64,000 nt of DNA from an uncultured virus (IMG/VR IMGVR_UViG_3300046359_000084) (Duplodnaviria; Heunggongvirae; Uroviricota; Caudoviricetes; Schitoviridae), in IMG/VR virus record IMGVR_UViG_3300046359_000084. The stretch is one strand, 5' to 3'. Below, in pieces: positions 7,401 to 48,462 of the stretch. How positions within the stretch are numbered: position 1 is the stretch's first letter; each line of letters begins with the position of its first letter. Under the pieces are notes generated by a model, which ran no database searches, was not told where the DNA came from, and saw only the letters and a list, made by a program, of their open reading frames with translations. The translations under genes were made by a program, and so were the position numbers.

Positions 7401-10400
7401 TACAAATTTATTTACTGATCCAACAAGATTAATAGAAATATTTAATCCTATTGTACCTAATAATGATTTTGAAACTATTGATAGTAATATTGTTATTAAA
7501 AGATTTAACAACTTTATAAATAAGACAGCAAATTCTTTAATAAATAATTTAACAGATATTGCTAAACAATCTGCTATAGGTAAAATATCTGTTGGTTCAA
7601 AAAATTATAGTTCTGAACAAGCATTACATTTAAGATTTTTATTAAACTCACAAGATGAGTTAGATCGTGATTTAGTATATAAAACATCTATGGCTTATGT
7701 AGATTGGTCATTAAACTTATCAAATGAAAAATTAATTACAGCTGAATTGTTAGGATCAAAAGCTGATGATTATACAGATTATTCAGGTAAAGATGTTCAT
7801 ACATTAGTACAAGAAGTAAATACTTTATTAAACCTAATTAAAAAATATTGGGGTGTTGAAGAAGATAATAATCAATCCCAGACATACACAGTAGGTATAG
7901 CAGAATTATTAGCAAGATATTTAATTACTAATTCTGAAGAGTTTGGTGCTACACTTAAATATATCAACACTAATGAGAGTAATGATGATGTTACTCAGAT
8001 ATATGAAACTTATGTTTTAACAACTAAAACACCTTATATTAGTGATCCAAACAACAAAGATAATACTCCATATAATATTTATAAAAAATCATATTTTAAT
8101 CAAACAAATTTTCTTAAAAAGATTACACAAAATAATGATGATATTGGTTATTTAATTAATGAACCAATAACAGATATTGATAGCCGTATTTCAGGTCGTA
8201 ATACTAACGTAACTAAGTTTACTCAAAATGCTATTAAACAATTACAGAATATTAAATTAAAACTTAATAAACCAATGTATGATTTATATAGACGTATTGG
8301 TCAAAAGAATTTATCTTTATTGTTTTCGTTACAAAATAAATCATTTAAACCTTTTGATAATTTAAATAAATCTTTTGTTAAAACATTAACTGGACATGAA
8401 TTAACAACTAACGAAAATATGAAAATAGCTATGTCTATTGGTTCACAGTTAGATAGTTTAAATGATCCAGAAGCAGGTGTTTACTTTAAATATAACACAA
8501 CATCTGTAAACAGATTACAAGAAGCCTATGGTGGACAGCAATCGAATAAACATTCAAGACAGTTACTTCTTACAGAAGAATATAGTGTTAATTTGAAAAG
8601 TGATGATAAAACTGATTTAAATTGGTATAGAGCAGCTATTGCTCAAAATCTAGGATTAGTTAAATTAGAACAAATTGATAATTTTAGATCAATCGTAAGT
8701 AAACTAAATGATTTTAAAAACAAACCAGAAGTTAAGAACTTTTTTAATTATTTAAATGATCCAAAACAAAAATTTGATATTAATTTAATTAATGATTTAA
8801 AAAACTTATTTGATAATGAACCAGAAGAAAAACATATATACGGTTTAACGGAATTAAATAAATATCTTAATGCTATTAAAAATAATGATACTTTTTTATC
8901 AACAATGATTGTATTAGAAATTGATGGTATTGCTAATGGCTATAACAATGCTATAGGTAACTATAATACATCATTCTTAGATAATAAATTACAGACATTA
9001 ATGCAAAGAGGTGGATTGTTTTATAACAATGATTTTACTACAAGTAATGAGTTTTTTAATAATGTTACTGGTGACACAAATGATAGTTATAATAACGTAC
9101 AAAGTTTATTCATTGATGAATTACAAAACCCAAACAAAATTATAAAAATAAATGATAAATTCTCTAAAGTAAGTTTTATTGATTTATTTCCTGAAATAAG
9201 ATCTCAAGTAATTCCTTTATTACAATCTGTTAAATTAACAGAAGAAAATAAAGATATATCATTACCTCGATCAGAAATAAAAGGTTCTGTTATACCTATT
9301 ACTTATGGTTCTGGTTCATTAGGTACAAGTAAAAAGATGCTTAAATCTTTCTTAGATAAAGTAGCTTTAGATCTTTCTATTCAAGATAATGTTATTACAG
9401 ATCAAAATAATTTAATTGATACATTAACATTTATGTTATCGTTCTCAGAACTTAATACAAATATTAAAACAAATAAAGATGGTAAAAAACTTACTACAAT
9501 TAATTTTAAAAGATTTAATGAAAATCAAATTCAAGAAATTAAAACAAATATATCTAAACGAATTAAAAATTCTGAATTATTTGAATTAACAAAGAAAGAG
9601 TTTAATTCTGCTGCAAAAGTATTTCAATCAATCTTTGGTTCAGAAGTACATTCTATAACTAAACAAACTCTTAATTCTGCTGGTAGAAATATTGATACAA
9701 TTCAACAGTTTACAAATCTTCAATCAGAAGTAGGTAAACGTGTTTATGAAGATTTAAGAGAACAAAAACTAAGAGAAATTAATAAATCTATTAATGAATT
9801 AGAAGATAATACAAAAAATATCTTACAGTTAAGTAAGAACCAAGAAAAAGAAATATTTAAACAATTACAAGAAGATAATATTTTAACCGAGTTAAAACAT
9901 AAAAATCATGTATTTGATTTAGGTACATCAGAAAAAATATTATCTAAAAATCCTTTATACGGGTTTGATTCATTTTCTTCTAATAGTAAAAGTGTTGGTT
10001 CATATTACACTGGTGTTGAAGCATTAGGTGTAGCATTTAGTGCTACATCAAATATTGGTAATGGTGATGGAATGATGATCCAACACTTTTATAATAATCC
10101 AGATATAAAAGATATTTTACCATTTATTACACAAACTTATGATGGTATCTATGTTCCTGTAAAATATGTGACTCGAGTATCTGAAGCAATTAATAAAGCT
10201 GTATGGAAAACATATCAAGAAAATTTAATATTACCTGTAGCAAAGCAATCGTATAATTTTTATACAGGAACACTAAAATATTTAAATTCTGTGGATAAAG
10301 ATAAACAACAAGAATTATTAAGTACAATTATTGAAGTTAGTCGTATTAAAAATCTACAAGAATTGTCTGATATTGAATTAGTTAAAAATTATCTTGGTAA

Positions 10401-13400
10401 TGAGGTAAAACAATTAGTTACTCTTGCTGCTGAAAGACAAGCATTTATTGATACAGTTAGAGATCATGTTGATGTTAGTATTAATCAAATGGGAGGAGGT
10501 AGAATACCTTATATACATAAAGCATCTAAAGAAAAAATTATAGATGAAAATATATTAAGAGAAATCCAAGAACAAAAATTTAATGAGTATTATAATAAAT
10601 ATGTTACAGATCTTAAATTAGAAAAACAAAATAAAGGGCTTGGAGAAATAAAACTTACTAATATTAAATCAATTAATGAAAATCAAAGTGATATAGAATT
10701 ATTTGATAAAAATTTATATAATAAATTAACTCAAAAAAGAAACACAAATGGTAGTATTTTATTAAAGGATATAGTCCCTGAATTATTAGAATTAAAAAAT
10801 GTACCTAAATCTTTGATAAATAAAATTATTCAACTTATTGATCCAAACACAGTAATATATTTAAGAGATATAGAAAATCCTGATCTTACTTCGTTGGATC
10901 AAATTAAAGATAATTTATTTCCTGAATTAAAAAATAAATCTATTGAAAATGGATTATTTACTAAAGATCTAGTAACAAGACAAACACATTTATTTATTAA
11001 TAATGTTTCCACAGAAACATTAGTACATGAATTAAATCATGTTATTCATGTTGATATGTTTAGTAAGTATTTTGGTGATAGTTCATTATTAACTGCTGAA
11101 CAAGTTGCTTATATAGATGTTCTTGTAACTCTAAAAGATGAGTTTTTAGAACTAGAATCTAATGATCGTATTGTAAATACAGTAAAACAAATTATCAGTA
11201 CAGATAATGATGTTGTTAATATGTCTGAATTTGTTTCATGGGTATTAACAAATAAACAATTAAAGACTAAATTAGAAAATATTAAATTAGATAATTCAAT
11301 TTTAAATAAAATAATTATCATTGTTGATAAAGTGTTTAATGCTTTAGTTAAATTTTTTTCTAATAGTAAGGATAAAAATCAAGATAACTTTTATGATACA
11401 TTATTGTTTACATATCTTAGAGCTTTACCAAAAAATAAAAAAGATATTAATCCAATTCAATTATTACAAGTTAATACATTAAACCAAAAACAAATAAATA
11501 GTTTTACTGAAATTAATACAAAAATATCTGCATTGGTTCAAAAACATCAAGATAGATTTAAAACTGTATCTGAACCAAACAAAACAATGTTTAAAGATAT
11601 TAATAATCAACGTAGTTCTGATAATAAATTAATAACAAATCAATTAGAAACTGTATTTAATTTCAGTCCTGTAGAGAAAATTACATTTAAAAATTTAATG
11701 AATTTATTTGATTTAGGATTAGTAAACAAATCTTATAACATTAATAAATTACAACAAGTCTATAATAAATTTATTAACGAAGTATCTTATAAAGATTTTA
11801 TTGATTCAAACACAACAGAAAATCAAGCAAGACTTAAATATGAGAATATGACTGGATTTAATGAAAATAATTTAAAAGTATTTTTTGCACTATCTCAGAC
11901 TAATTCTATGGTTCAAGATGTATTATCAAGACTTATATTTAAAGAAAATAAATTAACAGGTATAGCAATATCTGATAAATTAAATAATTTAAAAATAGAC
12001 ATTTTAAATTCTATTGATCCAGTAAATGTAGTTGGTAATGGTGCTACATTGATGAATGGTATTACAGTTGATTATTTAAACAGTGAATTAGAAGCATTAG
12101 ATGAATTAGAAAGATTGAACCAAACAAAATATAATATTGATGGAAAGATAACTACAGCAGTTGTTGATTTATTTAATAAAGTTACAGATGATAAATACAA
12201 AGATGTGTTTAAAACTAATGCTATAAGTGCTGCATTTGATCGAGCATCAGCATTGATTGGTAAATCAGATACTAAACTACCACAAGCACTAAAAGACATA
12301 TTTAAAGAACTTGTTGGTAAGACTGTTACAAGTGAAAATATTGAAAACTTAATGAACATTGTTAAAGACAAAGTACAATCTGTTAAAAATTCTTATAAAA
12401 CAATTTTACCACAAAACATAAAAGAAGAATTTAAAACAAATCCTGATAATAAAGTATTTGAAAATTTAACTACTACAGTTGGTAAAACAGATATATTTTC
12501 TCTTGGATCAACAAGATCATTTAATGAGATATTTAAAATATTATCAAGCGATAAAAATGTTCAAGAAGAAATATCTATTATAGAAAAAAGATTAAAGAAT
12601 AAAGATTATATTAGAAAATCTAAACAATTAGCTAATTATTTAATCACTGGTTCAGCAGGATTTAATTTACTTACTAATGCTAACAGTATCAGTATATTAG
12701 CAGGAGAAAGTAATTTTTTAGATGTTGATCCAAGTGATACAGTTGTACAAGATATTGATCATTTAGTTTCATTGTATGCTTTTCAACAAACAACAGATAG
12801 CAATAAACAAGAATTAAGAGATCTTATTAAAAATGATACAAGTGGATTACATATCTTATTAAGTAATTTACATGAGCTTAATCAGAATGAAAATAATAAA
12901 ACTCTTGGTTCAGAAATCAATAAGTATAACCGTAGAAAAGGATATTTACCATTCTCTATCAGAGATGGTAAGAAATTAATCATAGCCACAGACACACAAA
13001 AACTAAAGCTATTAGAAGATGGATTTGTTAGAGTAGGTGATTACACTGATCCAGTATCAAAAGTAAAAAAAGGATATTATTTATCTTCTGTTATTGGTTC
13101 ACCATATTTACAAGGTATTATGCAGACTGTTAATAACAGTATTAATGGTATGAATGTTTACAGTGGTCAAGATATGACAGGACAGTTTGCTGATTATATT
13201 ACAGACACTTTATCTATTGATAAGATCTATGATGCTACAAAGAACAATCCTAATGCAGCAGAATCATATATTCCTGTGATTGGATTAAAAGGTACAATTA
13301 TTGCTTATCAACGTAATATGCGTCAAAATATGTTAGATTTATTGAACCAAGAAAAAGACTTAACAAACCTTATGGGGATAATGAAATCAAGACAAGTTGA

Positions 13401-14664
13401 GGAACAATTAACACAAGAGTTTAATAACAAACTTATTGATAGAACATTCGATTTATACAAAAATGACTTTGATAAAAGTACATATACAAATATTGCTACA
13501 TCTATTGATCCAGTGATCAAAGATACATGGAGAGTTATCCCTAGTGAAACAAAAACATATATAGAATCTGTATTTGGTAAAGATAAATTCTTTGTTAGAA
13601 ATGATTTAATAAACAATTCATTAGGTTATAGATTACCTTCTGTTAGTGATTTATTTACTGGTAAAACAAAATTATCAAAAGAAACAAAAGATGTTATTGA
13701 AAAAATGATGAGATTAGTTCTTGGATCAAAAGCGTATATATATCTTAAAAATGCTGAAGATGGATTACAAGAATATGTTAAATACACAAAAGAATGGATT
13801 TATTTAAAATCTATTGTTGTCCCTGCTTCTAATACAGCAAGTAATATATTACAATTAGTGATGAATGGAGTACCATTAACATACATTGCTAAAAATGGTT
13901 TAAAAGCGTTATCTGAATTAAAACTTTATCATAAAAATGAATTAAGAGAAATTAAGATAAACACAATATTACCTTCTGTTGATGAACCAACAAAGAAGAA
14001 ATTACAACAAGAACTTAAAGTTATTGAAGAAGTTTTAAATAATTTATCTATTAAACCATTAGTTGATGCTGGAGAGTTTTCTGCTGTTAATGAAGGTGTT
14101 AGTGAAATTGATGGATTGTTATCTGCAAATAATATTGGAGAGTTTTTAAATAATCAAATTAATAAAATTGTAGATACAAAAAAAGTAAATAGTAAGATAC
14201 CTGAATCATTAAAAACAGTTAGTAAGTATGCTATTGTAGCTAAAGATACTGCGTTATATAAAGGCTTAGTACAAACTGTTTTGTATAGTGATTATGTTAG
14301 TAAAGCAATTTACTATAATCATTTAGTAGAAAATCAAAATATGGATATGGAAAATGCTAAACGATTAGTATCTGAGGAATTTATTAATTATAATTTTTTA
14401 CCTGGACGTACTAGATCGTATTTAGAGTCTGTTGGATTATTATGGTTTTGGAATTTTAAAATAAGATCATTAAAAGTAGCAGGAAGAATGATTGTCAATA
14501 ATCCGTTCAAATCATTGCTTGGATCATTGTTTGCATCAGAACTTCCTGCTTATGGATTAGGTACACCAATACAAGATAATATTGTTACTAACTTCTCAGG
14601 AGTAGGAGTTAATAACTTATTACGTCCTGCTGCACATAATCCATTATTAAATGTTATTAGTTAG
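4441..14664 (+). CDS. Virion-encapsidated RNA polymerase (N4 gp50-like vRNAP)
   Basis: 3407 aa; motifs TSVNRLQ, LEIDGIANG (A), RSEIKGSVIPITYGSG (B), IGNGDG and TYDG (C region); HELNH zincin-like motif; no Cys seen. Confidence 0.97.
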   Translation: MDKLIPNLNQIGRNYGITAKDLPKVNSPKSLDYDPNLPTVNEDLSIPNTIDMRSVSQQLKDISLGVGSSAVSTLGNIGGAVIGSDAYNLGNDISNTFNNLKTNYTKNLEQQLSQESDIANKVFDKQVEKAPTSLSALNTRIKQVVANIANTDIEQAASSTFGSALGLAPVIAATGGIGGLAGATGASVGASFGAGLGSLTDAGGQAYQQVINTPIEQLSQTSPLWNNVLEQSNGDPKLARQTLAEITAKDANINPTNVALSFGLGAATNNLAKGLAKGKIINSNLNTPLNVGIEAIGEGIDEGKTTYASNQAIQDNVDPSQSLSEGVTASITQGLVGSGITSTPSLVGNTIQSGLEIAKDVTQKPEDKEVSNIIKEVNKSSETVSSLVQPTENIPNNELIQAANSKLIAGKEDIFNFVSTEYPNVDLNKMYPNSDKETQLSTLAGVNNLMNVINNNDFKTNQEKIETARLFKTLVNDIRDGSIPLLAETTEADKIVNQEIKRQQQLLEQFTQTTKYQNSIKELETLTQEDNKEIEDIISTGSKEDIVLNQRKIKNVFNQTKTVFENNPLGISEKFIKYLYDNKEILSKNTDFTQEDLDFIDTLYNTKQDEQAAKSVNEEINSNVDNADELVKSNVDNVSYEISDIGKADGKKSLSQHIKGIVTALNSETKTARNQDGIDNTADELINNLGGFAGHMKRKAEAAIQSINGGKGEQIKFDPFSGFRQYNKDNERSKASVYVNLGSKNSIYTGLAVFNDAYSTINTYNNMVKEAQRQGLQLETDLIELPQVPEALLKNVSDSVRERFNNIAPVKTTVTEPTQENKQKDKKKTNTSFRSVKKNLKKVVENNPITDTTEPENNIPDSNVNDVKQIPTTKTEGITTKNDSDKTNDNKELFNTLTTKVGKVATNLVNDQVTKTDENITNDKVDNNVHSAGSIQESYYTDEEDLLKTYKTKEFKKITNRSNKDAPLTFKTFFPKIKEGILNVNFYTNLFTDPTRLIEIFNPIVPNNDFETIDSNIVIKRFNNFINKTANSLINNLTDIAKQSAIGKISVGSKNYSSEQALHLRFLLNSQDELDRDLVYKTSMAYVDWSLNLSNEKLITAELLGSKADDYTDYSGKDVHTLVQEVNTLLNLIKKYWGVEEDNNQSQTYTVGIAELLARYLITNSEEFGATLKYINTNESNDDVTQIYETYVLTTKTPYISDPNNKDNTPYNIYKKSYFNQTNFLKKITQNNDDIGYLINEPITDIDSRISGRNTNVTKFTQNAIKQLQNIKLKLNKPMYDLYRRIGQKNLSLLFSLQNKSFKPFDNLNKSFVKTLTGHELTTNENMKIAMSIGSQLDSLNDPEAGVYFKYNTTSVNRLQEAYGGQQSNKHSRQLLLTEEYSVNLKSDDKTDLNWYRAAIAQNLGLVKLEQIDNFRSIVSKLNDFKNKPEVKNFFNYLNDPKQKFDINLINDLKNLFDNEPEEKHIYGLTELNKYLNAIKNNDTFLSTMIVLEIDGIANGYNNAIGNYNTSFLDNKLQTLMQRGGLFYNNDFTTSNEFFNNVTGDTNDSYNNVQSLFIDELQNPNKIIKINDKFSKVSFIDLFPEIRSQVIPLLQSVKLTEENKDISLPRSEIKGSVIPITYGSGSLGTSKKMLKSFLDKVALDLSIQDNVITDQNNLIDTLTFMLSFSELNTNIKTNKDGKKLTTINFKRFNENQIQEIKTNISKRIKNSELFELTKKEFNSAAKVFQSIFGSEVHSITKQTLNSAGRNIDTIQQFTNLQSEVGKRVYEDLREQKLREINKSINELEDNTKNILQLSKNQEKEIFKQLQEDNILTELKHKNHVFDLGTSEKILSKNPLYGFDSFSSNSKSVGSYYTGVEALGVAFSATSNIGNGDGMMIQHFYNNPDIKDILPFITQTYDGIYVPVKYVTRVSEAINKAVWKTYQENLILPVAKQSYNFYTGTLKYLNSVDKDKQQELLSTIIEVSRIKNLQELSDIELVKNYLGNEVKQLVTLAAERQAFIDTVRDHVDVSINQMGGGRIPYIHKASKEKIIDENILREIQEQKFNEYYNKYVTDLKLEKQNKGLGEIKLTNIKSINENQSDIELFDKNLYNKLTQKRNTNGSILLKDIVPELLELKNVPKSLINKIIQLIDPNTVIYLRDIENPDLTSLDQIKDNLFPELKNKSIENGLFTKDLVTRQTHLFINNVSTETLVHELNHVIHVDMFSKYFGDSSLLTAEQVAYIDVLVTLKDEFLELESNDRIVNTVKQIISTDNDVVNMSEFVSWVLTNKQLKTKLENIKLDNSILNKIIIIVDKVFNALVKFFSNSKDKNQDNFYDTLLFTYLRALPKNKKDINPIQLLQVNTLNQKQINSFTEINTKISALVQKHQDRFKTVSEPNKTMFKDINNQRSSDNKLITNQLETVFNFSPVEKITFKNLMNLFDLGLVNKSYNINKLQQVYNKFINEVSYKDFIDSNTTENQARLKYENMTGFNENNLKVFFALSQTNSMVQDVLSRLIFKENKLTGIAISDKLNNLKIDILNSIDPVNVVGNGATLMNGITVDYLNSELEALDELERLNQTKYNIDGKITTAVVDLFNKVTDDKYKDVFKTNAISAAFDRASALIGKSDTKLPQALKDIFKELVGKTVTSENIENLMNIVKDKVQSVKNSYKTILPQNIKEEFKTNPDNKVFENLTTTVGKTDIFSLGSTRSFNEIFKILSSDKNVQEEISIIEKRLKNKDYIRKSKQLANYLITGSAGFNLLTNANSISILAGESNFLDVDPSDTVVQDIDHLVSLYAFQQTTDSNKQELRDLIKNDTSGLHILLSNLHELNQNENNKTLGSEINKYNRRKGYLPFSIRDGKKLIIATDTQKLKLLEDGFVRVGDYTDPVSKVKKGYYLSSVIGSPYLQGIMQTVNNSINGMNVYSGQDMTGQFADYITDTLSIDKIYDATKNNPNAAESYIPVIGLKGTIIAYQRNMRQNMLDLLNQEKDLTNLMGIMKSRQVEEQLTQEFNNKLIDRTFDLYKNDFDKSTYTNIATSIDPVIKDTWRVIPSETKTYIESVFGKDKFFVRNDLINNSLGYRLPSVSDLFTGKTKLSKETKDVIEKMMRLVLGSKAYIYLKNAEDGLQEYVKYTKEWIYLKSIVVPASNTASNILQLVMNGVPLTYIAKNGLKALSELKLYHKNELREIKINTILPSVDEPTKKKLQQELKVIEEVLNNLSIKPLVDAGEFSAVNEGVSEIDGLLSANNIGEFLNNQINKIVDTKKVNSKIPESLKTVSKYAIVAKDTALYKGLVQTVLYSDYVSKAIYYNHLVENQNMDMENAKRLVSEEFINYNFLPGRTRSYLESVGLLWFWNFKIRSLKVAGRMIVNNPFKSLLGSLFASELPAYGLGTPIQDNIVTNFSGVGVNNLLRPAAHNPLLNVIS

Positions 14665-40058: not shown

Positions 40059-41249
40059 CTAACTTAACGCATATTCAGAATTTCTAATATCATTAGAAAT
40101 ATTTTCAATCTTATCAACAGCAATTTTACTATTACCTGTTAATGTTCTAGCAATATACTGTAAAATATTACTTGTACTAATTTCAGCCATAATATTATTA
40201 TATTGTTGCCTAACATCATTACCATAGTTAGGTAAACATTTGAACGCATCGTGAATCACTAACATTTCAAATGGTTCACTAGGTAAAGACTCAATTATTG
40301 ATCTTAACTGAACCATATCAATTAAATTAAGATTATACTCATCAATGTATTCTAAGATCTCTAAGCTATAAAACTTAGTTTCTTTTTGTAACATTAATAA
40401 GTTATTCAGTTTAACATCTTTGGTTCTTTCTCTACCATCATGTTCTTTTGGTGATAGAGTTAAGATATTTAATAATTGATCTTCATTGTAATTACATCTC
40501 CGAACCATCTCTCTAACAATGAAAGCATCAGTCGAATGACAAACATTGGCAGTAAGAGATCTGTAATTATTAGAGTATTTATTTTCTTCAACAATGATTT
40601 TATGTTGTTGGTTCAAGAATGTAAATTGTTTCTCTACCTTTTCTTTAACAGGGATATAAACATGGAATCCATCTGGCATAATCCATTCGTGAACCAATGT
40701 TTTATTATTCCAAAGAGTTTCTATTGATTTGTTTAGTAAATATGCTCCAGGTAAATCTGATTCAAGTGTTTGATAGAATTGATCCAACAACTCACCTTTA
40801 CCGAATATTCTTTGGGGTTGTGCTGTAGAGCTATAAAATGCTGTCATTATAGCTTCTTTTACATCTTTACGTTCTAACCTATCATCTTTAACAACTTTGT
40901 TATAAATGTTGGTATAAGCATCTTGTCTGTTGGTTGATATTAACCCACACACTTCTGCTGATTTTCTACAACCCATAAATGCTGATAATATTTGTATTCC
41001 TGACGAGCATGAATCTTGTGATATAAGATAACCTGACGGAGATCCATTTAAATAGTCATTATAGGCTTGTAAACCACATAGGTATAGGTTTGGTTCATCT
41101 GCTTGGTTATTAAGCTCAGAAAGGTTATTTTTATTGTTTTCAAACCATTCAAGTCTGACTTCAAAGTTTTGTTTTTCTAAATCTTTAGAGAAGTTATTTG
41201 CTATGTCGATAGCTAAATACTGTAAACCTGTGTACTTTGTAATTGTCAT
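40059..41249 (-). CDS. RNA polymerase II subunit 2 (N4 gp16-like, T7-type catalytic half)
   Basis: YLAIDIANNF, QDSCSSGIQ (A), RKDVKEAIMTAFYSS (B), ANVCHSTDA, VIHDAF (C). Confidence 0.95.
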   Translation of the reverse strand: MTITKYTGLQYLAIDIANNFSKDLEKQNFEVRLEWFENNKNNLSELNNQADEPNLYLCGLQAYNDYLNGSPSGYLISQDSCSSGIQILSAFMGCRKSAEVCGLISTNRQDAYTNIYNKVVKDDRLERKDVKEAIMTAFYSSTAQPQRIFGKGELLDQFYQTLESDLPGAYLLNKSIETLWNNKTLVHEWIMPDGFHVYIPVKEKVEKQFTFLNQQHKIIVEENKYSNNYRSLTANVCHSTDAFIVREMVRRCNYNEDQLLNILTLSPKEHDGRERTKDVKLNNLLMLQKETKFYSLEILEYIDEYNLNLIDMVQLRSIIESLPSEPFEMLVIHDAFKCLPNYGNDVRQQYNNIMAEISTSNILQYIARTLTGNSKIAVDKIENISNDIRNSEYALS

Positions 41250-41275
41250 AATACTTTTCCTATTATTGAATTTAT

Positions 41276-41533
41276 TTAGTCTGTAGCTTGTAATAGTTCT
41301 CTGATTTTATCATCAGATAATTTATGTTTATTTGTTAGTAAGTGTTCCTTTAGCATTGATATTTTTACAGGATAGGTTAGATCAATATTTGTTTTATGAT
41401 CCAAGACTTGAAATGGTATGTTATTCCATACTAATGAATATATGTAATTGTAGTTTATAAATCCTTTTTTCTTTATATATAATCTTCTAAAGTTTGAATA
41501 TCTATAAATTGTTATCATTATCTTTTTTTCCAA
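41276..41533 (-). CDS. Hypothetical protein, weakly resembling the PhaR N-terminal DNA-binding domain
   Basis: TIYRYSNFRRLY...FQVLDHKTNIDLT resembles the IKKY.NRRLY...F.V.D.KTG.D.T pattern. Confidence 0.45.
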   Translation of the reverse strand: MEKKIMITIYRYSNFRRLYIKKKGFINYNYIYSLVWNNIPFQVLDHKTNIDLTYPVKISMLKEHLLTNKHKLSDDKIRELLQATD

Positions 41534-41732
41534 ATATTCTAATTAATTTTGTTGGATTTGTGGCTTCTACTAAATGCCTACAATTTAAACATTTTATTGA
41601 ACCAAAGAAAAAAGGTACTTTATTTTTTGAGAGTCCAGATCTATATCTTATATATAATTTATCTGTTTTACATTTAGGACATTCTTTTAAATTAGTTTTT
41701 TTAAATCTTTTTACAGATATTTGTTTTGCCAT
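41502..41732 (-). CDS. Zinc-ribbon protein (Lar-like)
   Basis: LKECPKC...IKCLNC. Confidence 0.5.
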   Translation of the reverse strand: MAKQISVKRFKKTNLKECPKCKTDKLYIRYRSGLSKNKVPFFFGSIKCLNCRHLVEATNPTKLIRIFGKKDNDNNL

Positions 41733-41746
41733 ATTATATATCTTTA

Positions 41747-41971
41747 TTAATTATATTTATATTTTCTATTATTAAATACTTCATGTGAGTATTTATGTAT
41801 TCTTATATCATTTGATACAGATCTTCTGTTAAGAATTTCTGTTTCATAAGAATTAAGGTGTTGTTCTAAAAACAGTTGAATCAAAGAAAAACAGCTATCA
41901 TTGTATTTCGATAGCTGTTTTAATTTTCTTTTAGTTAATAGGTATTGGATCAATAATTCATTGTCATTCAT
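41747..41971 (-). CDS. Hypothetical protein
   Basis: 74-aa ORF. Confidence 0.45.
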   Translation of the reverse strand: MNDNELLIQYLLTKRKLKQLSKYNDSCFSLIQLFLEQHLNSYETEILNRRSVSNDIRIHKYSHEVFNNRKYKYN

Positions 41972-42605
41972 TATTAATTAATCCTTTTATTTCATTATAT
42001 GTATAAGTTTTTTTATCTATTATTAAATAGTATTCATTATTATTAAAATTATTAAAAGGTTTTACAAAGAAAATTACATTGTCTAAGATATATTCTAAAC
42101 ACTTAGTTTTATCTAAATACTCTTCGAGATCAGAAATATAGAGATCACTATACATAGTATATACATCTAAAAATTTCTTTATTATATTATTTTTTGTTAA
42201 TATAAGATACTTTTTAAAAATATATGTTAGAGGTAATGTTTTAGTAATATTAGATGTTAATATACCATCTAAATTATCTAATATTTTTTGATCTTCTTTA
42301 GAATCTAAAAGGTATATATTATTCTGATTAAATATTTTTAATGTTTCATAACAATAATCTATTTTAAATAATATGTGACTAGGATTATTAATAACTTCTC
42401 CAATAGTATTGAATCCTATTTCATCTGAATTAATTAAAGTATCAGAAAAACAAATATGATCTATTCTAGTTTTAATTATATTAAAATCAAATGGGTTATA
42501 ACATATTGGTTCAAACTCTTTTGTTGTAAAATTAAAAATTTTATTATCAATTAATGAATTTGTATAAAATTTTAATTTATAAGTTATTTTATTTCTGTCT
42601 ATCAT
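41964..42605 (-). CDS. Hypothetical protein
   Basis: 213-aa ORF. Confidence 0.55.
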   Translation of the reverse strand: MIDRNKITYKLKFYTNSLIDNKIFNFTTKEFEPICYNPFDFNIIKTRIDHICFSDTLINSDEIGFNTIGEVINNPSHILFKIDYCYETLKIFNQNNIYLLDSKEDQKILDNLDGILTSNITKTLPLTYIFKKYLILTKNNIIKKFLDVYTMYSDLYISDLEEYLDKTKCLEYILDNVIFFVKPFNNFNNNEYYLIIDKKTYTYNEIKGLINNE

Positions 42606-43030
42606 AGTTGATATTCTCCTGACGTGTAATTACTTGTTGCTATTCTAAACTTATAACCAAGTTTACAAAGTTTATTAATCATTGAATAATAATTCTTTTC
42701 AAAGTTATAGTTTGCTAAGTTTCTTAGTTTTATTTCATTTGGTTCAAGATAGTCTGCATCATTTAATAAACACGTTTGTTTAATAATGATACCATCTCCA
42801 TAATATGTTGATTCAAATGATATTTTATATAATAAGGTTTGAATTTCATAATCTTTATCATCACTATAAACTACATTTAATATTGATTTTAAATCATGAA
42901 ATAGATTACTCATTTGATCAGAATAATCATATTCATCTTCTGGATCAATATCTAACCATACAGCTTTAACATACTGTTCATGGTTATCTTTATCATAGTA
43001 TTTGTTTGTATAGTAACAACCTGCTCCCAT
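42602..43030 (-). CDS. Hypothetical protein
   Basis: 142 aa, MGAGCYY start and FRIATSNYTS end. Confidence 0.6.
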   Translation of the reverse strand: MGAGCYYTNKYYDKDNHEQYVKAVWLDIDPEDEYDYSDQMSNLFHDLKSILNVVYSDDKDYEIQTLLYKISFESTYYGDGIIIKQTCLLNDADYLEPNEIKLRNLANYNFEKNYYSMINKLCKLGYKFRIATSNYTSGEYQL

Positions 43031-43031
43031 A

Positions 43032-43286
43032 TTATTTATCCTTATTTGATTTATATTCCATCATTAACATTACAACAGTTATTATAGGTGTTACCGTTAT
43101 ACTTTCTATTAAAGTAAATTTTAACAAAGGTATAAAACTAACAGGTTTACTTTCTGTAAAATTTATTACATAAGGTAAATACTGAAAAGTAAACCAATAA
43201 AAACAATTTGTTAATCCTATAAACAAATATGCTAATACAAAACTAGCTAAAACAGTTGTTATTAGATTTATTATAAATTTACTCAT
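43032..43286 (-). CDS. Small membrane protein
   Basis: Two hydrophobic segments. Confidence 0.55.
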   Translation of the reverse strand: MSKFIINLITTVLASFVLAYLFIGLTNCFYWFTFQYLPYVINFTESKPVSFIPLLKFTLIESITVTPIITVVMLMMEYKSNKDK

Positions 43287-44055
43287 CTTTGATTACTTTC
43301 TTATTAAATAATTCAATTATTGATTTTTGATACTCATTTCCCATATAATTTATATGATAACCAGAACAATATATTCTACCTCGTTTGTCATATCTATGTG
43401 CTAGATAAAACTTATTACCTTGCATCATAAGATGACTATAAACATCATTAACTTCAGACATAAATTTATTAAGTCTTTGTTGTTTCTGGTTCACTTTTAA
43501 CTGTGTATCGTCTTTCTTTGGTTTAACTTTATTTTTAGTCTTATTAATATTATTAATACTAAGAGCAATCTTATTCATTTTATTAAGATGAGATAAACAT
43601 ACTTCATTATTATGATAATTTAATTTAGGTTTGAGTATTACACTTTCTGAACCAATATAACTATATGCACTATCATTGTTAGTTTTTAATGTTACTGGTT
43701 CAGTAGTCATTGGTAATGGATATATTAATGATTTAACTTTCTGTAATAAATCTGGTTTGAATTTATGTCTTACAATGAACCAATCACCATTATAATCTAC
43801 AAGATCTAGTTCTATTGCTTGTTCTAATAGATTAGCACATTCTTGTATGTTATCACATTGTGTCTGTAATACACCTACAAGTGTTTCTATATTAGCTATC
43901 TCAAATAAGTTCATCTGAACCAATAACATAAGACCAAATTTCTCTGGTATATTATTATCTTTTAAATAAGATATTAAATCTGGATTATTTAATGTATCCA
44001 ATAATAATTTAAATTTAAGTCTGTTATCAAATAGTTGTTCTAATTCATTGTCCAT
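43279..44055 (-). CDS. RNA polymerase II subunit 1 (N4 gp15-like)
   Basis: YPLPMTTEP, CLSHLNKMNKIAL, FYLAHRYDKRGRIYCSGYHINYMG. Confidence 0.93.
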   Translation of the reverse strand: MDNELEQLFDNRLKFKLLLDTLNNPDLISYLKDNNIPEKFGLMLLVQMNLFEIANIETLVGVLQTQCDNIQECANLLEQAIELDLVDYNGDWFIVRHKFKPDLLQKVKSLIYPLPMTTEPVTLKTNNDSAYSYIGSESVILKPKLNYHNNEVCLSHLNKMNKIALSINNINKTKNKVKPKKDDTQLKVNQKQQRLNKFMSEVNDVYSHLMMQGNKFYLAHRYDKRGRIYCSGYHINYMGNEYQKSIIELFNKKVIKDE

Positions 44056-44060
44056 ATTAT

Positions 44061-44597
44061 TTACTCCCAGTTGTATGATTCTAATGCTTTATCTACTTCT
44101 AACTCTAATTTATGTTTAAATAATACATCAGCTAAATCTACTGATGTAACATTTAGAATATGTTCATTTTTTGCGTCCATTAAACTAACAGATATTTCTA
44201 ATGTTGGATCATGTTCTTTTAAATAATCAAGTGCTGTAATAGGTGTAAATACTTTTTTACAGTATTCTTTTATTAAAGTTCTTGTTGTAAATTCTTTATC
44301 TATTAACTCTCGATTAATCATAGTTAAATGTATTGGATCAATATTTTTAATAAATATTTTATTGTCCCAAGGAATATGTTTAAAGAATTTTGTTTCACTT
44401 TTTAAAAACATAACTAATTTATCTAATTTATATGTATTCATTTTATGTTCTACCAATTCTTTAATGTACCAATTAAAATTATCTGTATTATCTATTTCAT
44501 AAGTTGTACCTTTACGAGTGTATGTTAATTTAGCATATGGATCATATCCATCATTCGATAATAGATTAATAAGTTCTTCTAGTGAGATTGTTTCCAT
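44061..44597 (-). CDS. Hypothetical early protein
   Basis: 178 aa; ALDYLKEHDPTLEISV...LADVL. Confidence 0.55.
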   Translation of the reverse strand: METISLEELINLLSNDGYDPYAKLTYTRKGTTYEIDNTDNFNWYIKELVEHKMNTYKLDKLVMFLKSETKFFKHIPWDNKIFIKNIDPIHLTMINRELIDKEFTTRTLIKEYCKKVFTPITALDYLKEHDPTLEISVSLMDAKNEHILNVTSVDLADVLFKHKLELEVDKALESYNWE

Positions 44598-44668
44598 TCT
44601 TTAGGTATCCTTTAGGTATTTTTTTATAAATTTAAGGTGTTAATCTTTAGGTTACTATCTGTTTTTAC

Positions 44669-44706
44669 AAAAAAAAATCAACAACACAGATTTCTCTATG
44701 TTGTTG
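44669..44706 (-). terminator. Intrinsic terminator after the gp2-like gene
   Basis: On the - strand CAACAACATAGA-GAAA-TCTGTGTTGTTG followed by A and a T9 run. Confidence 0.85.
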
Positions 44707-44779
44707 TTTAGTGTATGTTTAGGTATTTTTGTAAAATATTAAAAATCTAGTCTTTAGGTTTTGATATATAAAGTTGAGC

Positions 44780-45202
44780 TTAAATTAGATCAATAAATTC
44801 ATCTTCATTTTCAATAATTTGAGCTTCTTTTGGTAATTCTTTGTAGAATTGTACATTCAATTTTGAATCATAAGTTGGATTATTATTGTCTAAAGTTGAC
44901 ATTTGTTTTTCGATTGCTTTAATAAGATTTCTCTTTTTAACACTCAATGGTGATAAAGATTTACCACTCATTAAATATTTATAATTAGTAGAGTTTTGAA
45001 TCATATCTAATGATATATTAATTGGTAAACTAATGAATTGTTCTTCTTCTATTCCATCTTCATTCTCTACCATTGTTATGATACCAATATTTAACCAAAT
45101 GTTATTCTTTGGTTCAGTTGTTGGTTTAACATCTTCTGTATTGAATATGTTAAATGCTTTATTGATGTCTGCTGTTCTGTTTGTTTTTGAAATGTAAGCC
45201 AT
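44780..45202 (-). CDS. N4 gp2-like ssDNA-binding activator of middle transcription
   Basis: WLNIG...FISLPINISLD...RNL motifs; early-region position; AGGAG RBS. Confidence 0.75.
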   Translation of the reverse strand: MAYISKTNRTADINKAFNIFNTEDVKPTTEPKNNIWLNIGIITMVENEDGIEEEQFISLPINISLDMIQNSTNYKYLMSGKSLSPLSVKKRNLIKAIEKQMSTLDNNNPTYDSKLNVQFYKELPKEAQIIENEDEFIDLI

Positions 45203-45255
45203 ATAATTTCTCCTGAGATATAGCTGAGTTATTGATTGGTATTATAAAACACCAC

Positions 45256-45283
45256 AAAACACATATAATTATATATGTGCTTT
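45256..45283 (-). terminator. Probable terminator hairpin
   Basis: Stem CACATATA/TATATGTG with a T-rich tail on the - strand. Confidence 0.45.
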
Positions 45284-45297
45284 AGCTGATATTTTAC

Positions 45298-45501
45298 TTA
45301 TATTTGAACCACATAATTAATGAATTTATCTGGCATATTTTCACAATCATATTTTGTATCAGAATGATTAATTACTCTGATACAATCACCATAACTGTTT
45401 GTATGTACTTCTGGTAATGAGAAGTAATTTATTACATTGTAAGCTACTATTAATACTAATGATATTGTAATTCCTGTTGTTATTAATAATTGTTTGTTCA
45501 T
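45298..45501 (-). CDS. Early membrane-anchored protein (67 aa; start MNKQLL)
   Basis: TM segment followed by LPEVH...CIRV...CENMP; the longer ORF-track start overlaps another small ORF. Confidence 0.55.
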   Translation of the reverse strand: MNKQLLITTGITISLVLIVAYNVINYFSLPEVHTNSYGDCIRVINHSDTKYDCENMPDKFINYVVQI

Positions 45502-45502
45502 G

Positions 45503-45622
45503 TTATTTACTTTCATTTGTTGATTGATTATCTGATCCAAAGTCTGATGAATATGCTTCATCTTCTGGTTCAGTTGATAATAAGTTTTGTACAAGTTCTA
45601 CTGGAATTTTATTATTTTGCAT
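45503..45622 (-). CDS. Small early protein (39 aa, not in ORF track)
   Basis: AAGGAG RBS; MQNNKIPVELVQNLLSTEPEDEAYSSDFGSDNQSTNESK. Confidence 0.4.
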   Translation of the reverse strand: MQNNKIPVELVQNLLSTEPEDEAYSSDFGSDNQSTNESK

Positions 45623-45776
45623 ACATATCTCCTTTAAGGATTGTTTGTATATCTGTAATTGCTTGTTCTATAACATCACTGATATGATCTGGTTCTGGTA
45701 TAGGTTTACGAGATAGATTCAAATGAGTTTGAACCAGTGATCTATCTTCTTGGATTGTTGTTTCATAATGTAACAT
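45612..45776 (-). CDS. Small early protein (54 aa, not in ORF track)
   Basis: AGGAG RBS; MLHYETTIQEDRSLVQTHLNLSRKPIPEPDH...; first gene after hairpin promoter P2. Confidence 0.55.
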   Translation of the reverse strand: MLHYETTIQEDRSLVQTHLNLSRKPIPEPDHISDVIEQAITDIQTILKGDMYAK

Positions 45777-45836
45777 ATATATTCTCCTGTTGTTATATGT
45801 TGTTAATTATATTTGCAGTAAGGTAAATTATTATTA

Positions 45837-45856
45837 CCACAAGTCAGCTTGCTGAC
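45837..45856 (-). promoter_or_regulatory. Putative vRNAP hairpin promoter P2 (template = + strand)
   Basis: CC-ACAA-GTCAG-CTTG-CTGAC: N4-type geometry of CC, 4-nt spacer and 5-bp stem. Confidence 0.75.
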
Positions 45857-45945
45857 AACAATGATGACACATAGATAATCTTTAAGATACACTAGATAAA
45901 TAGCTTACTTACGCAATCTATATACTATCCAATGTGTTATGTGTT

Positions 45946-45978
45946 AAAAAAGTTAGACTAGAGATTGCTCTCTAGTCT
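45946..45978 (-). terminator. Intrinsic terminator after the gp1-like gene
   Basis: On the - strand AGACTAGAGA-GCAA-TCTCTAGTCT followed by AAC and T6. Confidence 0.85.
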
Positions 45979-45989
45979 TTAGTATATGT

Positions 45990-46298
45990 TTAGGCTTTGA
46001 TGCGTAGAAGTTCATCGAATTGTAGAAGTTCTAGTGCCATGTTAAAAGTATTTTGTTCTTTTTCTTTTAAATCAAGGACTTCTTTGTATGTTTGTTGTAC
46101 TGTTGCTACCAATTCTTTACGATGATTGGTGACAAGAGTATCAATGTCTGCTTGCTTATTTACAAGCTGACTATGTTTATGACGTTCTATGACATTTGCT
46201 GCCATAGTGATTCCATCATTGATCATATTGAATGCTGATCCAACTGATGTAAGAGTCTGTACAGTTGTAGATTGGAATGATTTAAAGATACCTGACAT
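45990..46298 (-). CDS. First early gene, N4 gp1-like (102 aa; start MSGIF)
   Basis: AGGAG RBS before ATG 46298; lies between P1 and the first terminator. Confidence 0.65.
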   Translation of the reverse strand: MSGIFKSFQSTTVQTLTSVGSAFNMINDGITMAANVIERHKHSQLVNKQADIDTLVTNHRKELVATVQQTYKEVLDLKEKEQNTFNMALELLQFDELLRIKA

Positions 46299-46330
46299 GG
46301 TATGTTCTCCTATATTGTTAGGCATGATTG

Positions 46331-46350
46331 CCACTGGTATGCTTGCATAC
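46331..46350 (-). promoter_or_regulatory. Putative vRNAP hairpin promoter P1 (template = + strand)
   Basis: CC-ACTG-GTATG-CTTG-CATAC, same architecture as the 45837 site. Confidence 0.75.
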
Positions 46351-46511
46351 TGTGTTATACGATGTATAGGGGGGGGATATAATTTATTTGTATATATACC
46401 TCCCTAGGAGGAACACTCTGCATATAAACCTATATTCTATAGAAAATTAATAATAAAAAATATTAGATATTTACACTCTATACTTATCACTATATTATAT
46501 AGATTTCACAC

Positions 46512-46544
46512 AAAAAAATACCTAGTAATTTATTTTACTAGGTA
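46512..46544 (-). terminator. Intrinsic terminator
   Basis: Stem TACCTAGTAA/TTACTAGGTA followed by T7 on the - strand. Confidence 0.75.
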
Positions 46545-46598
46545 GAAGTTTATCCATAACAATCTAGGAGAATAAATTATCTTAACATACATTATTAA

Positions 46599-46850
46599 TT
46601 ATAAACAGTAAATATTATCAAATTGTTTTACTGGTTCAACATGAGTTAATTGCAACAACATAATATTACTTTTAATGGATATTTTTGAGTAGGTAAATAT
46701 TTTATAATTGTAGTAGATTATTAATCTATAACCATCATTAATATCTAAGATATAATTATGTATGTCATAGGATAATAGATAATCTTTAAACTCAGATAGT
46801 TTATTAAAATCAATGTTTATTATAGTTTTTACATCTTCATCTTGTAACAC
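46599..46850 (-). CDS. Hypothetical protein
   Basis: 83 aa, GTG start with GGAG RBS. Confidence 0.5.
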   Translation of the reverse strand: MLQDEDVKTIINIDFNKLSEFKDYLLSYDIHNYILDINDGYRLIIYYNYKIFTYSKISIKSNIMLLQLTHVEPVKQFDNIYCL

Positions 46851-46854
46851 TGTA

Positions 46855-47130
46855 TTACTCCAATAATGAATCTTTAATATATTCTTGTACGTTAAATAGT
46901 ATAAGACTTAATATAGACTTATTCATTAATGAATGATTATAGAATGGTAACCCATCTTTAGTAAATCCACAAACAATAATATTTTCTATATCTCTACTAG
47001 GTAATGTATTAATAATTCTATCAGCAGATTCTTGTTCTTTATTGTTTGGTTCAAAAAGGATAAGATTACTATTCTTTAACTTAACTGTGCAGTTATAGTT
47101 TTGTTTCATATATTGTTTTGTATGGATCAT
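46855..47130 (-). CDS. Hypothetical protein
   Basis: 91 aa, IIVCGFTKDG motif. Confidence 0.5.
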   Translation of the reverse strand: MIHTKQYMKQNYNCTVKLKNSNLILFEPNNKEQESADRIINTLPSRDIENIIVCGFTKDGLPFYNHSLMNKSILSLILFNVQEYIKDSLLE

Positions 47131-47153
47131 TATATTTTTACTATGATAATTAA

Positions 47154-47393
47154 CTAATACTCTAGTTCTAAATAATGAGTTACCTCTGGTGGATTAGAGT
47201 ACATATCTGCATCTAGTCTAACTTTCATTTCTTTCTTTATGTTCTTTGGATTATGGTCGTATAATTCCTCTTCAGAGATATAACCTGTAGAATAGAATGT
47301 ACCTCCTTTTTTATTTTTACCGTAAAATAAATAAGGTGTGTTAATTTTTAAATCTTTAATAGATTTGTATTCTGTAAGTTTATTTGGTTTCAT
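47154..47393 (-). CDS. Hypothetical protein
   Basis: 79 aa ending VTHYLEL (DUF551-like tail). Confidence 0.5.
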   Translation of the reverse strand: MKPNKLTEYKSIKDLKINTPYLFYGKNKKGGTFYSTGYISEEELYDHNPKNIKKEMKVRLDADMYSNPPEVTHYLELEY

Positions 47394-47730
47394 TAATGAG
47401 ATTCCTTATATATTCTATAAATGATAGTTTGATAAATCCTTGTCCATCAAATAATGATACCACTTTATCTTTATCTTTGTAAAATAAATTGTATGATGTT
47501 ATAACATTATTTAGTGAAAACAAATCAATGGGAATATTAAATAATAGTTTATCAGAATAAGTTTTTGTATCAGTATGTACTAAGGATAATGTCTTATTGT
47601 TTGGTTCAAGAAAGATATATGTTATAATATCTTTTAGTTCTGGTTCATAAGCTAATTCTCTTAAGAAATGTGATACTCCATTTAAATAGTTACCTTGATA
47701 TTTTATGAGTGTTTGTAAATCTACTTGCAT
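47380..47730 (-). CDS. Hypothetical protein
   Basis: 116 aa with AGGA RBS. Confidence 0.55.
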   Translation of the reverse strand: MQVDLQTLIKYQGNYLNGVSHFLRELAYEPELKDIITYIFLEPNNKTLSLVHTDTKTYSDKLLFNIPIDLFSLNNVITSYNLFYKDKDKVVSLFDGQGFIKLSFIEYIRNLINETK

Positions 47731-47781
47731 TATTTTTCCTGTTGAGTAATACTAACTTAAATAGTATAGGAAAATTATTAT

Positions 47782-48462
47782 ATGTTGTCAAAAGAAGATA
47801 TTGAAAGATCTTTACCTACACAAGTTAAGTTACATATTAATGATGAGTTTGTAAGATTATTTAATGAAGTATCTGATAATCCTATTGTAGCAGAAGAAAT
47901 TAGAAATAACTTTGTATCTTATTCAACAGTAGTAAGAGATGGTCAGTTTAAAGTATTAGATTATTTTAATGCTGTGAAATATGTTAGTTATAAGATATTA
48001 GGGTATAGTAATAAAGATAGTTATAAACTTACATTCCCAGAAAGATACCAGAATTTAATAGCAGAAGGTGTATCAGATAAAGATATATCTTCTTATGTTG
48101 CTGCTTATAATAAAAATAAGTTAGTTAATCTTATTCTGGATCAAACACTAATACCTGTTCATGTTTTAAATGCTAATATATACCAGCAAGCTATTAATGT
48201 TCAAGCTGATCTTATGTTTACAGCTAAGTCTGATAAAGTAAAATGTGATGCAGCTAATAGTTTATTAACACATTTAAAGAGACCAGAAACAAAACAGATT
48301 GAATTACAGATCGGTACTAAAGATAGCAGTGATCTTAAAGATTTAAAAGAAACATTAAGACAATTAGCTTCTGCACAGATGCAACAAATTAATAATGGTA
48401 GTAGTGCTAAAGATGTAGCTAGACAATCTATTATTGATGTTACACCAAAAGAGATAAGTTGA
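47782..48462 (+). CDS. Terminase small subunit (N4 gp69-like)
   Basis: YFNAVKYVSYK, TFPERY, YQQAINVQA, DAANSLLTHLKRPE; directly before the large subunit. Confidence 0.8.
   Translation: MLSKEDIERSLPTQVKLHINDEFVRLFNEVSDNPIVAEEIRNNFVSYSTVVRDGQFKVLDYFNAVKYVSYKILGYSNKDSYKLTFPERYQNLIAEGVSDKDISSYVAAYNKNKLVNLILDQTLIPVHVLNANIYQQAINVQADLMFTAKSDKVKCDAANSLLTHLKRPETKQIELQIGTKDSSDLKDLKETLRQLASAQMQQINNGSSAKDVARQSIIDVTPKEIS

Follow-up and report, generated by a model that had tools for sequence, protein, structure and literature searches.

The DNA analysed here, called the window below, is a 64-kb stretch with an overall GC content of 27% (range 22-33%). It belongs to a deeply divergent N4-like phage (Schitoviridae) found in freshwater metagenomes, as follows from the presence of a gene for the virion RNA polymerase (vRNAP), of genes for both subunits of RNAPII, a second, T7-like polymerase, and from the N4-type gene order (Table 1). 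Primase, DNA polymerase, terminase and portal protein are also encoded. The genes are laid out as in coliphage N4, with an early/middle block and a late block that converge: the minus-strand block of early and middle genes (14.8-47.7 kb) runs towards the vRNAP gene, and the late block lies on the plus strand from 47782. No close cultured phage was found, RNAPII large subunit identity being at most 42.8% among 474 matching phage records, and DNA similarity to phage records is confined to ~100 bases. Closer relatives are known as proteins (RNAPII identity 86-93%). IMG/VR also contains fragments of the same phage, and scans of IMG/VR for close relatives retrieved this phage and one 50% relative only; the one metagenome scan for relatives yielded a single distant 2-kb contig, and a scan of a genome collection for close relatives yielded none. 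The phage was present in 24 sequencing runs, all of them DNA freshwater metagenomes, and no RNA run was among those listed.

Table 1. Coordinates of the features of the window discussed in the text
Feature	Coordinates	Strand	Description
Putative promoter element 1 (P1 equivalent)	46331-46350	+ (template)	CCACTGGTATGCTTGCATAC; CC 46331-46332 (predicted +2, +1); spacer ACTG 46333-46336; stem GTATG 46337-46341; loop CTTG 46342-46345; stem CATAC 46346-46350
Putative promoter element 2	45837-45856	+ (template)	CCACAAGTCAGCTTGCTGAC; CC 45837-45838; spacer ACAA; stem GTCAG 45843-45847; loop CTTG 45848-45851; stem CTGAC 45852-45856
Possible third, atypical element	45252-45279	+	just upstream (50 nt) of the gp2 homolog; CCAC 45252-45255; AAAA; 8-bp A/T-rich stem (45260-45267 pairs with 45272-45279); loop ATTA
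Poly-C tract	46369-46376		C8 on the early-gene sense strand, G8 on +
Predicted 5'-terminal leader stem-loop, transcript 1	46321-46332	-	GGCA-AUCA-UGCC
First early gene, N4 gp1 homolog	45990-46298	-	102 aa; phrog_5020, E 2.2e-4
Terminator-like stem-loop with T run, end of unit 1	45955-45978	-	
Predicted 5'-terminal leader stem-loop, transcript 2	45822-45838	-	GGUAA-(7 nt)-UUACC, 5-bp stem
Three small early genes after element 2	45298-45776	-	54 aa (45776-45612), 39 aa (45622-45504), 67 aa (45501-45298)
N4 gp2 homolog	44780-45202	-	140 aa; phrog_4099, E 2.2e-15
Strong terminator after the gp2 homolog	44706-44679	-	
RNAPII subunits	40059-41249 and 43279-44055	-	second, T7-like polymerase
vRNAP, proposed reader of the hairpins	4441-14664	+	3407 aa; phrog_2206, E 0, whole length; polymerase domain at ~residues 1018-2062

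The early genes lie on the minus strand, and the plus strand is therefore their template. Terminator-like sites split the early region into units, and one of them separates elements 1 and 2; on the minus strand between 44400 and 47900, three such sites are found versus 0.5 expected. Element 1 is followed by a 34-nt leader with the ribosome-binding site GGAG, which ends at the ATG (46298) of the gp1 homolog; N4 gp1 itself matches the same protein family at 1.3e-46. The leader that follows element 2 is 62 nt long, contains the ribosome-binding site AGGAG and ends at the ATG at 45776. Among the small genes downstream, the product of the third matches phrog_8293 at 2.5e-6; by eye, it is also similar to the product of nucleotides 8158-8358 of L005, the nearest relative that was fetched (50% RNAPII identity). 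The gp2 homolog is the final gene before the strong terminator, and its family is also matched by N4 gp2 (6.2e-50), by gp79 of Pseudomonas phage ZC08 (1.4e-36) and by the product of L005 nucleotides 7306-7722 (2.4e-7).

The leader stem-loops of the two transcripts begin at the predicted +1 sites, C46332 and C45838, respectively. GG sites that open a Watson-Crick stem of at least 4 bp number 40 out of 2331 in the window. Since 49 of 135 GTGG sites pass the leader stem-loop test when G-U pairs are allowed, the test in that form is weak.

Each element is 20 nt long. The pattern common to the two matches the window twice versus 0.02 matches expected, and none of 100 shuffles contained two or more matches. 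Since this pattern was taken from the two sites themselves, independent tests were run. On the plus strand of the window there are five GCTTGC and four GCAAGC words, and the only two of these nine with complementary flanking bases are elements 1 and 2, where four extra pairs surround GCTTGC in each case. When hairpins that contain G/C and have loops of 3-4 nt were listed without bias for the early region (41250-47800, 6.5 kb), GCTTGC was the sole combination of closing pair and loop found twice. First-order Markov simulations of this region produced any repeated signature in 19 cases out of 1000, and a repeated signature accompanied by a common 4-mer at the place of CCAC in one case out of 1000.

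The stems of the two elements differ at two positions, and both changes are compensated on the opposite arm (AT/AT versus CA/TG); the basis for covariation consists of the two paralogous copies in the window together with the sites of phages ZC08 and ZC03 described below. The stems are 5 bp long, or 6 bp if the inner C-G pair forms. Nearest-neighbour DNA folding yields a 5-bp stem with a 4-nt loop at about -3 kcal/mol per hairpin, which is ordinary (z -0.2 to -1.2 versus shuffles). Since folding energy is not unusual, support for the elements comes from repetition, covariation and position. The sequence-only reading had described two hairpins with compensatory stem changes, each upstream of a gene with a ribosome-binding site, with a terminator between them, with the plus strand as the template and with a loop unlike that of N4, and these observations were all borne out.

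The window contains only these two copies of the CTTG hairpin, with none before the RNAPII genes and none in the middle region. A generic search for CC, a spacer and a hairpin was too permissive in A/T-rich DNA, retrieving 78 sites on one strand and 97 on the other. A search of Rfam over 44000-48000 returned no family, the lone match (E 0.75) being irrelevant. When IMG/VR was scanned with a loose version of the hairpin motif, at least 119 loci were retrieved, mostly representing one unrelated conserved coding sequence; a tighter version retrieved 10 loci, three of which are the window phage and the rest of which are unrelated by blastn. L148 (29% GC), which matched the tighter motif, was rejected, as its arms do not pair. 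A contig of a divergent strain (runs X21 and X22) aligns with the window up to 45857, one base beyond element 2, then realigns over the terminator (45957-45982) and again from 46213. These alignment spans suggest that element 2 and the terminator may be conserved islands in the divergent strain.

A possible third, atypical element precedes the gp2 homolog (Table 1). It is one of three CCAC words, out of eight between 41000 and 47800, that adjoin hairpins, and a stem that starts with GG and includes one G-U pair comes after it. The centre of its loop is 5 nt farther from CC than in elements 1 and 2. Its stem and the accompanying T run also resemble a terminator.

The poly-C tract upstream of element 1 is the sole run of six or more C or G residues in the window. 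The equivalent run is found at nt 32 in the record of N4, at nt 29 in that of LUZ7 and at nt 40 in that of Rhizobium phage RHph_X3_15, and C runs of this kind precede the first early gene in 10 more genomes. In N4, the counterparts of the four genes ahead of this point in the window are gp70-72, located at the right end. From these poly-C counterparts and the gp70-72 correspondence, the physical left end of the genome is probably located ~30-40 nt upstream of the tract. Both elements lie within ~75-560 nt of the poly-C landmark.

The order of features after the poly-C tract is GTTGC-ttc-GCAAC, ttat, GGACA-tgt-TGTCC in N4, GCGAC-ttc-GTCGC, ttat, GGCAA-tt-TTGCC in contig L013, and GTATG-caag-CATAC, cagt, GGCA-atca-TGCC in the window. 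Since the order is the same in all three, element 1 occupies exactly the place of N4 P1, with which it shares three landmarks, i.e., the poly-C tract, the GG-initiated leader stem-loop and the gp1 homolog; element 2 heads the next unit, which includes the gp2 homolog. In ZC08, the tract is followed by a hairpin and then by GG after 4 nt; in Arace01, by a hairpin, 4 nt and a stem-loop that begins with GA. An identical leader 12-mer, GGCAATCATGCC, is present between the poly-C tract and the first gene of contig L025. The first hairpin after the poly-C tract was compared in 14 genomes: its loop is of the GNA type in four (N4, LUZ7, L013 and Arace01), is CTTG in two (the window and ZC08), and is of another or unclear kind in eight, whose hairpins are candidate promoters.

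The N4 virion polymerase is the model for promoter recognition via DNA structure, and the family as a whole has been credited with its code, namely a GNA loop, a purine at -11 and G at -8. A scan of the N4 record for C-GNA-G hairpins retrieved nt 90-102, 557-573 and 4546-4562, located upstream of gp1, gp2 and gp15, respectively; on the template strand, all three have the form CC-N4-stem5-GNA-stem5. According to PMC4496689, the N4 enzyme reads A or G at -11, G at -10, G at -8 and C at +1, and hairpin extrusion requires the closing pair and the loop G and A. Early promoters of the N4 type have a template-strand stem of 5-7 bp, whose sequence is free provided that it pairs, and are used by the virion enzyme on single-stranded or supercoiled DNA without the host polymerase.

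Like N4 promoters P1-P3, the window elements are template-strand hairpins with a 5-bp core stem, and CC at +1/+2 lies 4 nt from the stem. Position -1 is A in both phages (CC-ACTG and CC-ACAA in the window versus CC-ATAA, CC-AAAA and CC-AAAA in N4). In both, the hairpins are found at the left end of the genome, preceding gp1 and within the gp2 unit, and each unit is closed by a terminator; as at N4 P1, a GG-initiated stem-loop follows the hairpin of element 1. In contrast to the GNA triloop of N4, the loop in the window is CTTG (4 nt, or a C-G pair plus TT). Positions -10 to -13 are thus occupied by C, T, T and G, with T instead of a purine at -11 and C instead of G at -10. In place of the G at -8, which the N4 enzyme contacts through the major groove, element 1 has T, element 2 has A and the two ZC08 sites have C. 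Two copies were found in the window, neither of them before the RNAPII genes (compare N4 P3). Only three weak canonical C-GNA-G hairpins are present in the whole window, and none in the early region.

As a control of the method, the unbiased hairpin survey was applied to N4, where the top repeated signature corresponded to P2 and P3, i.e., two of the three promoters. In LUZ7, C-GTA-G hairpins gave the top signature; there are three of them, including a tandem pair in front of gp14 (Drc). This matches a study in which early start sites were mapped by ONT-cappable-seq and the strongest were found in tandem before gp14 (PMC9163698). The LUZ7 early promoters, as described in that work, resemble the window elements in being repeated early-region hairpins whose stems differ while the loop stays the same and whose start base is G. 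They differ in that the loop is of the GNA type (C-GTA-G) and that 6 nt separate CC from the stem, which places the start 13-14 nt away from the centre of the loop; in the window, the loop is CTTG and this distance is ~12 nt.

We also surveyed 17 N4-like loci from IMG/VR for repeated hairpins with a nearby CC. Two G-CTTG-C hairpins were found in one of the 17 (L018), which is Pseudomonas phage ZC08. On the template strand, the first of them, CC-AGAC-CTACG-CTTG-CGTAG, follows a C run, and 36 nt of leader separate it from the gene at the gp1 position; the other, CC-AAAC-CTGCG-CTTG-CGCAG, lies ~60 nt before gp79, the gp2 homolog. Both CTTG hairpins are present in phage ZC03 as well. The six sites of the window, ZC08 and ZC03 all have CTTG on the template strand, CAAG on the opposite strand and A at position -1. 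The two cultured phages (Zicotriavirus) thus share with the window CC, a 4-nt spacer that begins with A, a 5-bp stem, the CTTG loop and the presence of two copies, one at the P1 position and the other in front of the gp2 homolog; in their genomes, these hairpins are unannotated. Unlike those of the window, their stems are G/C-rich and of unrelated sequence, and the genome has a GC content of 43%.

The relative L005 has no CTTG hairpins. It contains two hairpins with the loop AATTAA and unrelated 5-bp stems 27-28 nt before a start codon, one in front of the gene at the gp1 position and the other in front of the gp2 homolog. The CTTG loop is not unique to the window phage, and it is one of several non-GNA loops at P1 positions. 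The word "promoter" does not occur in the main text of the ZC03/ZC08 genome paper or of the family taxonomy paper, and the term was not found in PMC5418858, PMC7650795 and PMC10654107. Within the main texts of open-access papers, we found no description of non-GNA loops in vRNAP promoters; predicted LUZ7 and LIT1 promoters are given in Table S2 of PMC3715699.

A family profile made of 84 polymerase domains aligns with residues 1018-2062 of the window vRNAP at E 3.9e-102; K437, R440 and D559, which serve catalysis and initiation, are conserved. The domain is an outlier: in a library of 1.8 billion proteins, its matches reach ~1e-30 with 21-27% identity. The N4 domain can be aligned over its full length with other vRNAPs; of 147 compared, the best 60 have E values of 1e-180 to 1e-279. 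In a tree of the domains, the terminal branch of the window enzyme is 3.13 long versus 0.61 for N4; the window enzyme is at a distance of 6.14 from that of ZC08 versus 4.51 from that of N4, and the window and ZC08 are not neighbours. A word-indexed search with residues 900-1400, the region of -11 recognition, found nothing, and phmmer with residues 900-1250 against solved structures returned no vRNAP; this region was reached by the family profile only.

The residues through which N4 mini-vRNAP reads positions -11, -10, -9 and -8 of its promoters (K114, R119, W129, D901 and R904), whose comparison the sequence-only reading had proposed as a check of a different promoter code, were examined in the profile alignment. 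K114 of N4 is replaced by T, R119 by Q and W129 by Y in the window enzyme, and the alignment of the loop with D901 and R904 is ambiguous, one version giving S and K and the other N and S. Among the 84 family members, however, position 129 is W in 30, F in 20 and Y in 10, and K114 is present in 17, R119 in 14, D901 in 29 and R904 in 34. Thus, the residues do differ from those of N4, but since the contact positions vary throughout the family the differences are not diagnostic: they allow a different promoter code without demonstrating it. The window and ZC08 enzymes have no obvious signature in common at these positions.

We conclude that both elements are very probably early promoters for the virion RNA polymerase and that they represent a variant loop class recurrent in the family. 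The sequence-only reading had arrived at the same function, which accords with the P1 position, the N4 geometry, the recurrence in ZC08 and ZC03 and the coincidence of the predicted +1 sites with leader stem-loops.

One can suppose instead that the early units are transcribed by host RNA polymerase from σ70-type promoters and that the palindromes act at the RNA level or in regulation, e.g., as leader hairpins or sites of processing. A σ70-like sequence, TTGTCA-17-AATAAT (10/12), does overlap element 2 on the minus strand (45858-45830), and an 11/12 match is found at 47791-47763, before the four small genes upstream. However, matches of this kind are rarer in the region than in shuffles (23 versus 32.1), none is listed at element 1, and the gp1 and gp2 units of N4 are made by the virion enzyme, according to PMC4496689 and PMC13434306. 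Transcription by the host enzyme also leaves unexplained the fixed 4-nt distance to CC and the recurrence of the arrangement in ZC08 with its GC content of 43%. We therefore regard this explanation as quite improbable.

The elements could also be hairpin promoters of RNAPII, similar to the middle promoters of LUZ7, which are described in PMC9163698 as having stems of at least 6 bp and 3-4-nt loops ~15 nt upstream of the start; when read as 6-bp stems with a TT loop, the window elements resemble them. Yet they precede homologs of gp1 and gp2, on which the RNAPII of N4 itself depends as cofactors (PMC4496689). Since RNAPII cannot make its own cofactors first, an earlier polymerase is needed. The elements are also located near the left-end poly-C landmark, where the first DNA enters the cell, and the middle region has no copies. 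Their use by RNAPII is thus very unlikely.

The same low probability is assigned to a third explanation, in which the palindromes are operators for a dimeric DNA-binding protein of the phage or the host. Two copies of a near-perfect 14-bp palindrome at regulatory positions would fit such a role. In the operator reading, however, one has to accept that variable positions change on both arms with pairing kept, and that ZC08 has wholly different stems with an unchanged loop and CC spacing, which indicates that structure rather than half-site sequence is maintained. Moreover, the element has a direction, as its centre is asymmetric (TT on the template strand at all six sites) and CC flanks it on one side only. 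Finally, a chance resemblance of two functionless hairpins, for which the abundance of A/T-rich pseudo-hairpins and the unremarkable folding energy might speak, can be practically dismissed given the shuffles and simulations described above, the equivalent location of the N4 promoters and the recurrence of this class of hairpin in ZC08 and ZC03.

If the elements are vRNAP promoters, early transcription of the window phage may proceed as follows. After DNA entry, the inverted repeats would be extruded with the help of supercoiling, as in the N4 model (PMC4496689), so that the template plus strand would form a hairpin with a 5-bp stem and a CTTG cap, in which C and G could pair around a turn of two thymines. 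The vRNAP, a T7-like single-subunit enzyme packaged in the virion, would bind this hairpin and initiate RNA synthesis at C46332 and C45838, at a distance of 4 nt from the stem; since the starts would lie at template CC, the RNAs would begin with GG. The first unit would supply the gp1 homolog and the second the three small proteins and probably the gp2 homolog, with both units ending at terminators. Extrusion, vRNAP binding and the exact start sites are inferred here.

CTTG may cap the template strand with a compact and stable structure, a role played by GNA in N4. According to PMC9975016, CTTG is a compact DNA tetraloop with a C-G loop-closing pair, characterised by NMR, and the most stabilising of its class in minidumbbells. 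This type II tetraloop, 5'-CTTG-3', has exactly the sequence of the template-strand loop; it is known from minidumbbells and short oligonucleotides, not from promoters. The enzyme may read CTTG specifically rather than tolerate it.

Since the loop in the window differs from the textbook loop of N4, the virion polymerase family seems to use more than one promoter code. LUZ7, according to the mapping study, has the same loop type as N4; judging from the window and from the cultured ZC08 and ZC03, it is the architecture that is conserved and not the loop that is read. The occurrence of the CTTG class in two lineages with distant polymerase domains means that it either arose twice or is ancient. 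The window enzyme may thus be orthogonal to that of N4. We put forward, as a tentative proposal with slightly less than even chances, that CTTG hairpins constitute a second self-contained class of vRNAP recognition, in which a C-G-closed TT loop is read instead of a stacked purine and which is mutually exclusive with GNA, and that Schitoviridae accordingly represent a library of orthogonal polymerases.

For uncultured N4-like genomes, the results provide a rule by which early promoters can be looked for: poly-C, hairpin, 4 nt, start. They also raise a structural question, namely how a pyrimidine mini-loop is recognised. Since ZC08 and ZC03 are cultured, the idea is open to bench testing now. 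The small polymerase domains could serve as orthogonal transcription tools on single-stranded DNA templates, and, if the proposal is true, the AATTAA loop of the nearest relative and the other loops at P1 positions would point to a natural library of mutually orthogonal polymerases.

Genome records of N4-like phages carry a run of 6-10 C on the strand of early-gene sense; this poly-C tract is 29-40 nt away from the left end and lies 5′ of the first promoter. A tract of this kind is found in the window, which holds no other such run of C besides it. As can be seen from the table, it is shared with several relatives, and it is also present in ZC08, in the N4-like IMG/VR loci L010, L011, L013, L016, L020, L021 and L025, and in Arace01. 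Long homopolymer tracts, their meaning unknown, have been described in a paper on Vibrio N4-like phages, where the passages concerned do not mention position (PMC3670811). In permuted assemblies, the tract can conveniently be used to recognise the genome end. Taken in the direction of early transcription, a 13-nt palindrome, CCTCC-CTA-GGAGG (+ strand, window 46398-46412), precedes the tract by ca. 22 nt, near the predicted genome end.

Coordinates of poly-C tracts and loop hairpins
Feature	Genome	Coordinates	Remark
Poly-C tract	Window	46369-46376	C on early-gene sense strand
Poly-C tract	N4 record	nt 32-40	
Poly-C tract	LUZ7	nt 29-35	
Poly-C tract	RHph_X3_15	nt 40-48	
Poly-C tract	L005	6636-6642	
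AATTAA-loop hairpins	L005	6681-6696 and 7266-7281	sense strand
CTTG-loop hairpins	ZC08 (NC_048639)	~44811-44824 and ~45667-45680	P1 and P2 positions; unannotated
CTTG-loop hairpins	ZC03 (locus L165)	~6520-6533 and ~7375-7390	P1 and P2 positions; unannotated

Four small genes on the minus strand (47730-46599) are positional counterparts of gp70-72, which are found at the right end of the N4 genome. They are preceded on the same strand by a near-consensus σ70-type match, TTGACA-17-TATACT (11/12; window 47763-47791). A divergent strain that co-occurs with the window phage in freshwater metagenome runs X21 and X22 lacks 390 bases at window 44072-44463 and 269 at 47140-47410, with 10-11 other letters in place of each missing stretch. 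These differences are indels in small genes of the early region.

The gap between the terminator of the gp2 unit and the next gene contains four minus-strand copies of ACCTAAAG (window 44600-44760; first bases at 44759, 44652, 44617 and 44606). Words resembling AAAAATACCTAAA were seen by eye ahead of two genes, the one at 44597 and that for the small subunit of RNAPII, the second phage polymerase. This repeat could be a promoter of the unit to which the RNAPII genes belong.

In L005, the nearest relative (50% RNAPII identity to the window phage), two hairpins with an AATTAA loop have 5-bp stems of unrelated sequence. Each is located 27-28 nt from a start codon, one in front of the gene at the gp1 position and the other in front of the gp2 homologue, and they are probably the early promoters of the L005 lineage itself. 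The polymerase domain of the window virion RNA polymerase (vRNAP), taken as a whole, is on a very long branch. For vRNAP residues ~900-1120, directly preceding the alignable polymerase core, neither a word-indexed search nor phmmer against solved structures detected any relatives.

Hairpins with the CTTG loop were located in ZC08 and ZC03, two cultured Pseudomonas phages that offer an experimental system for this class of promoters.
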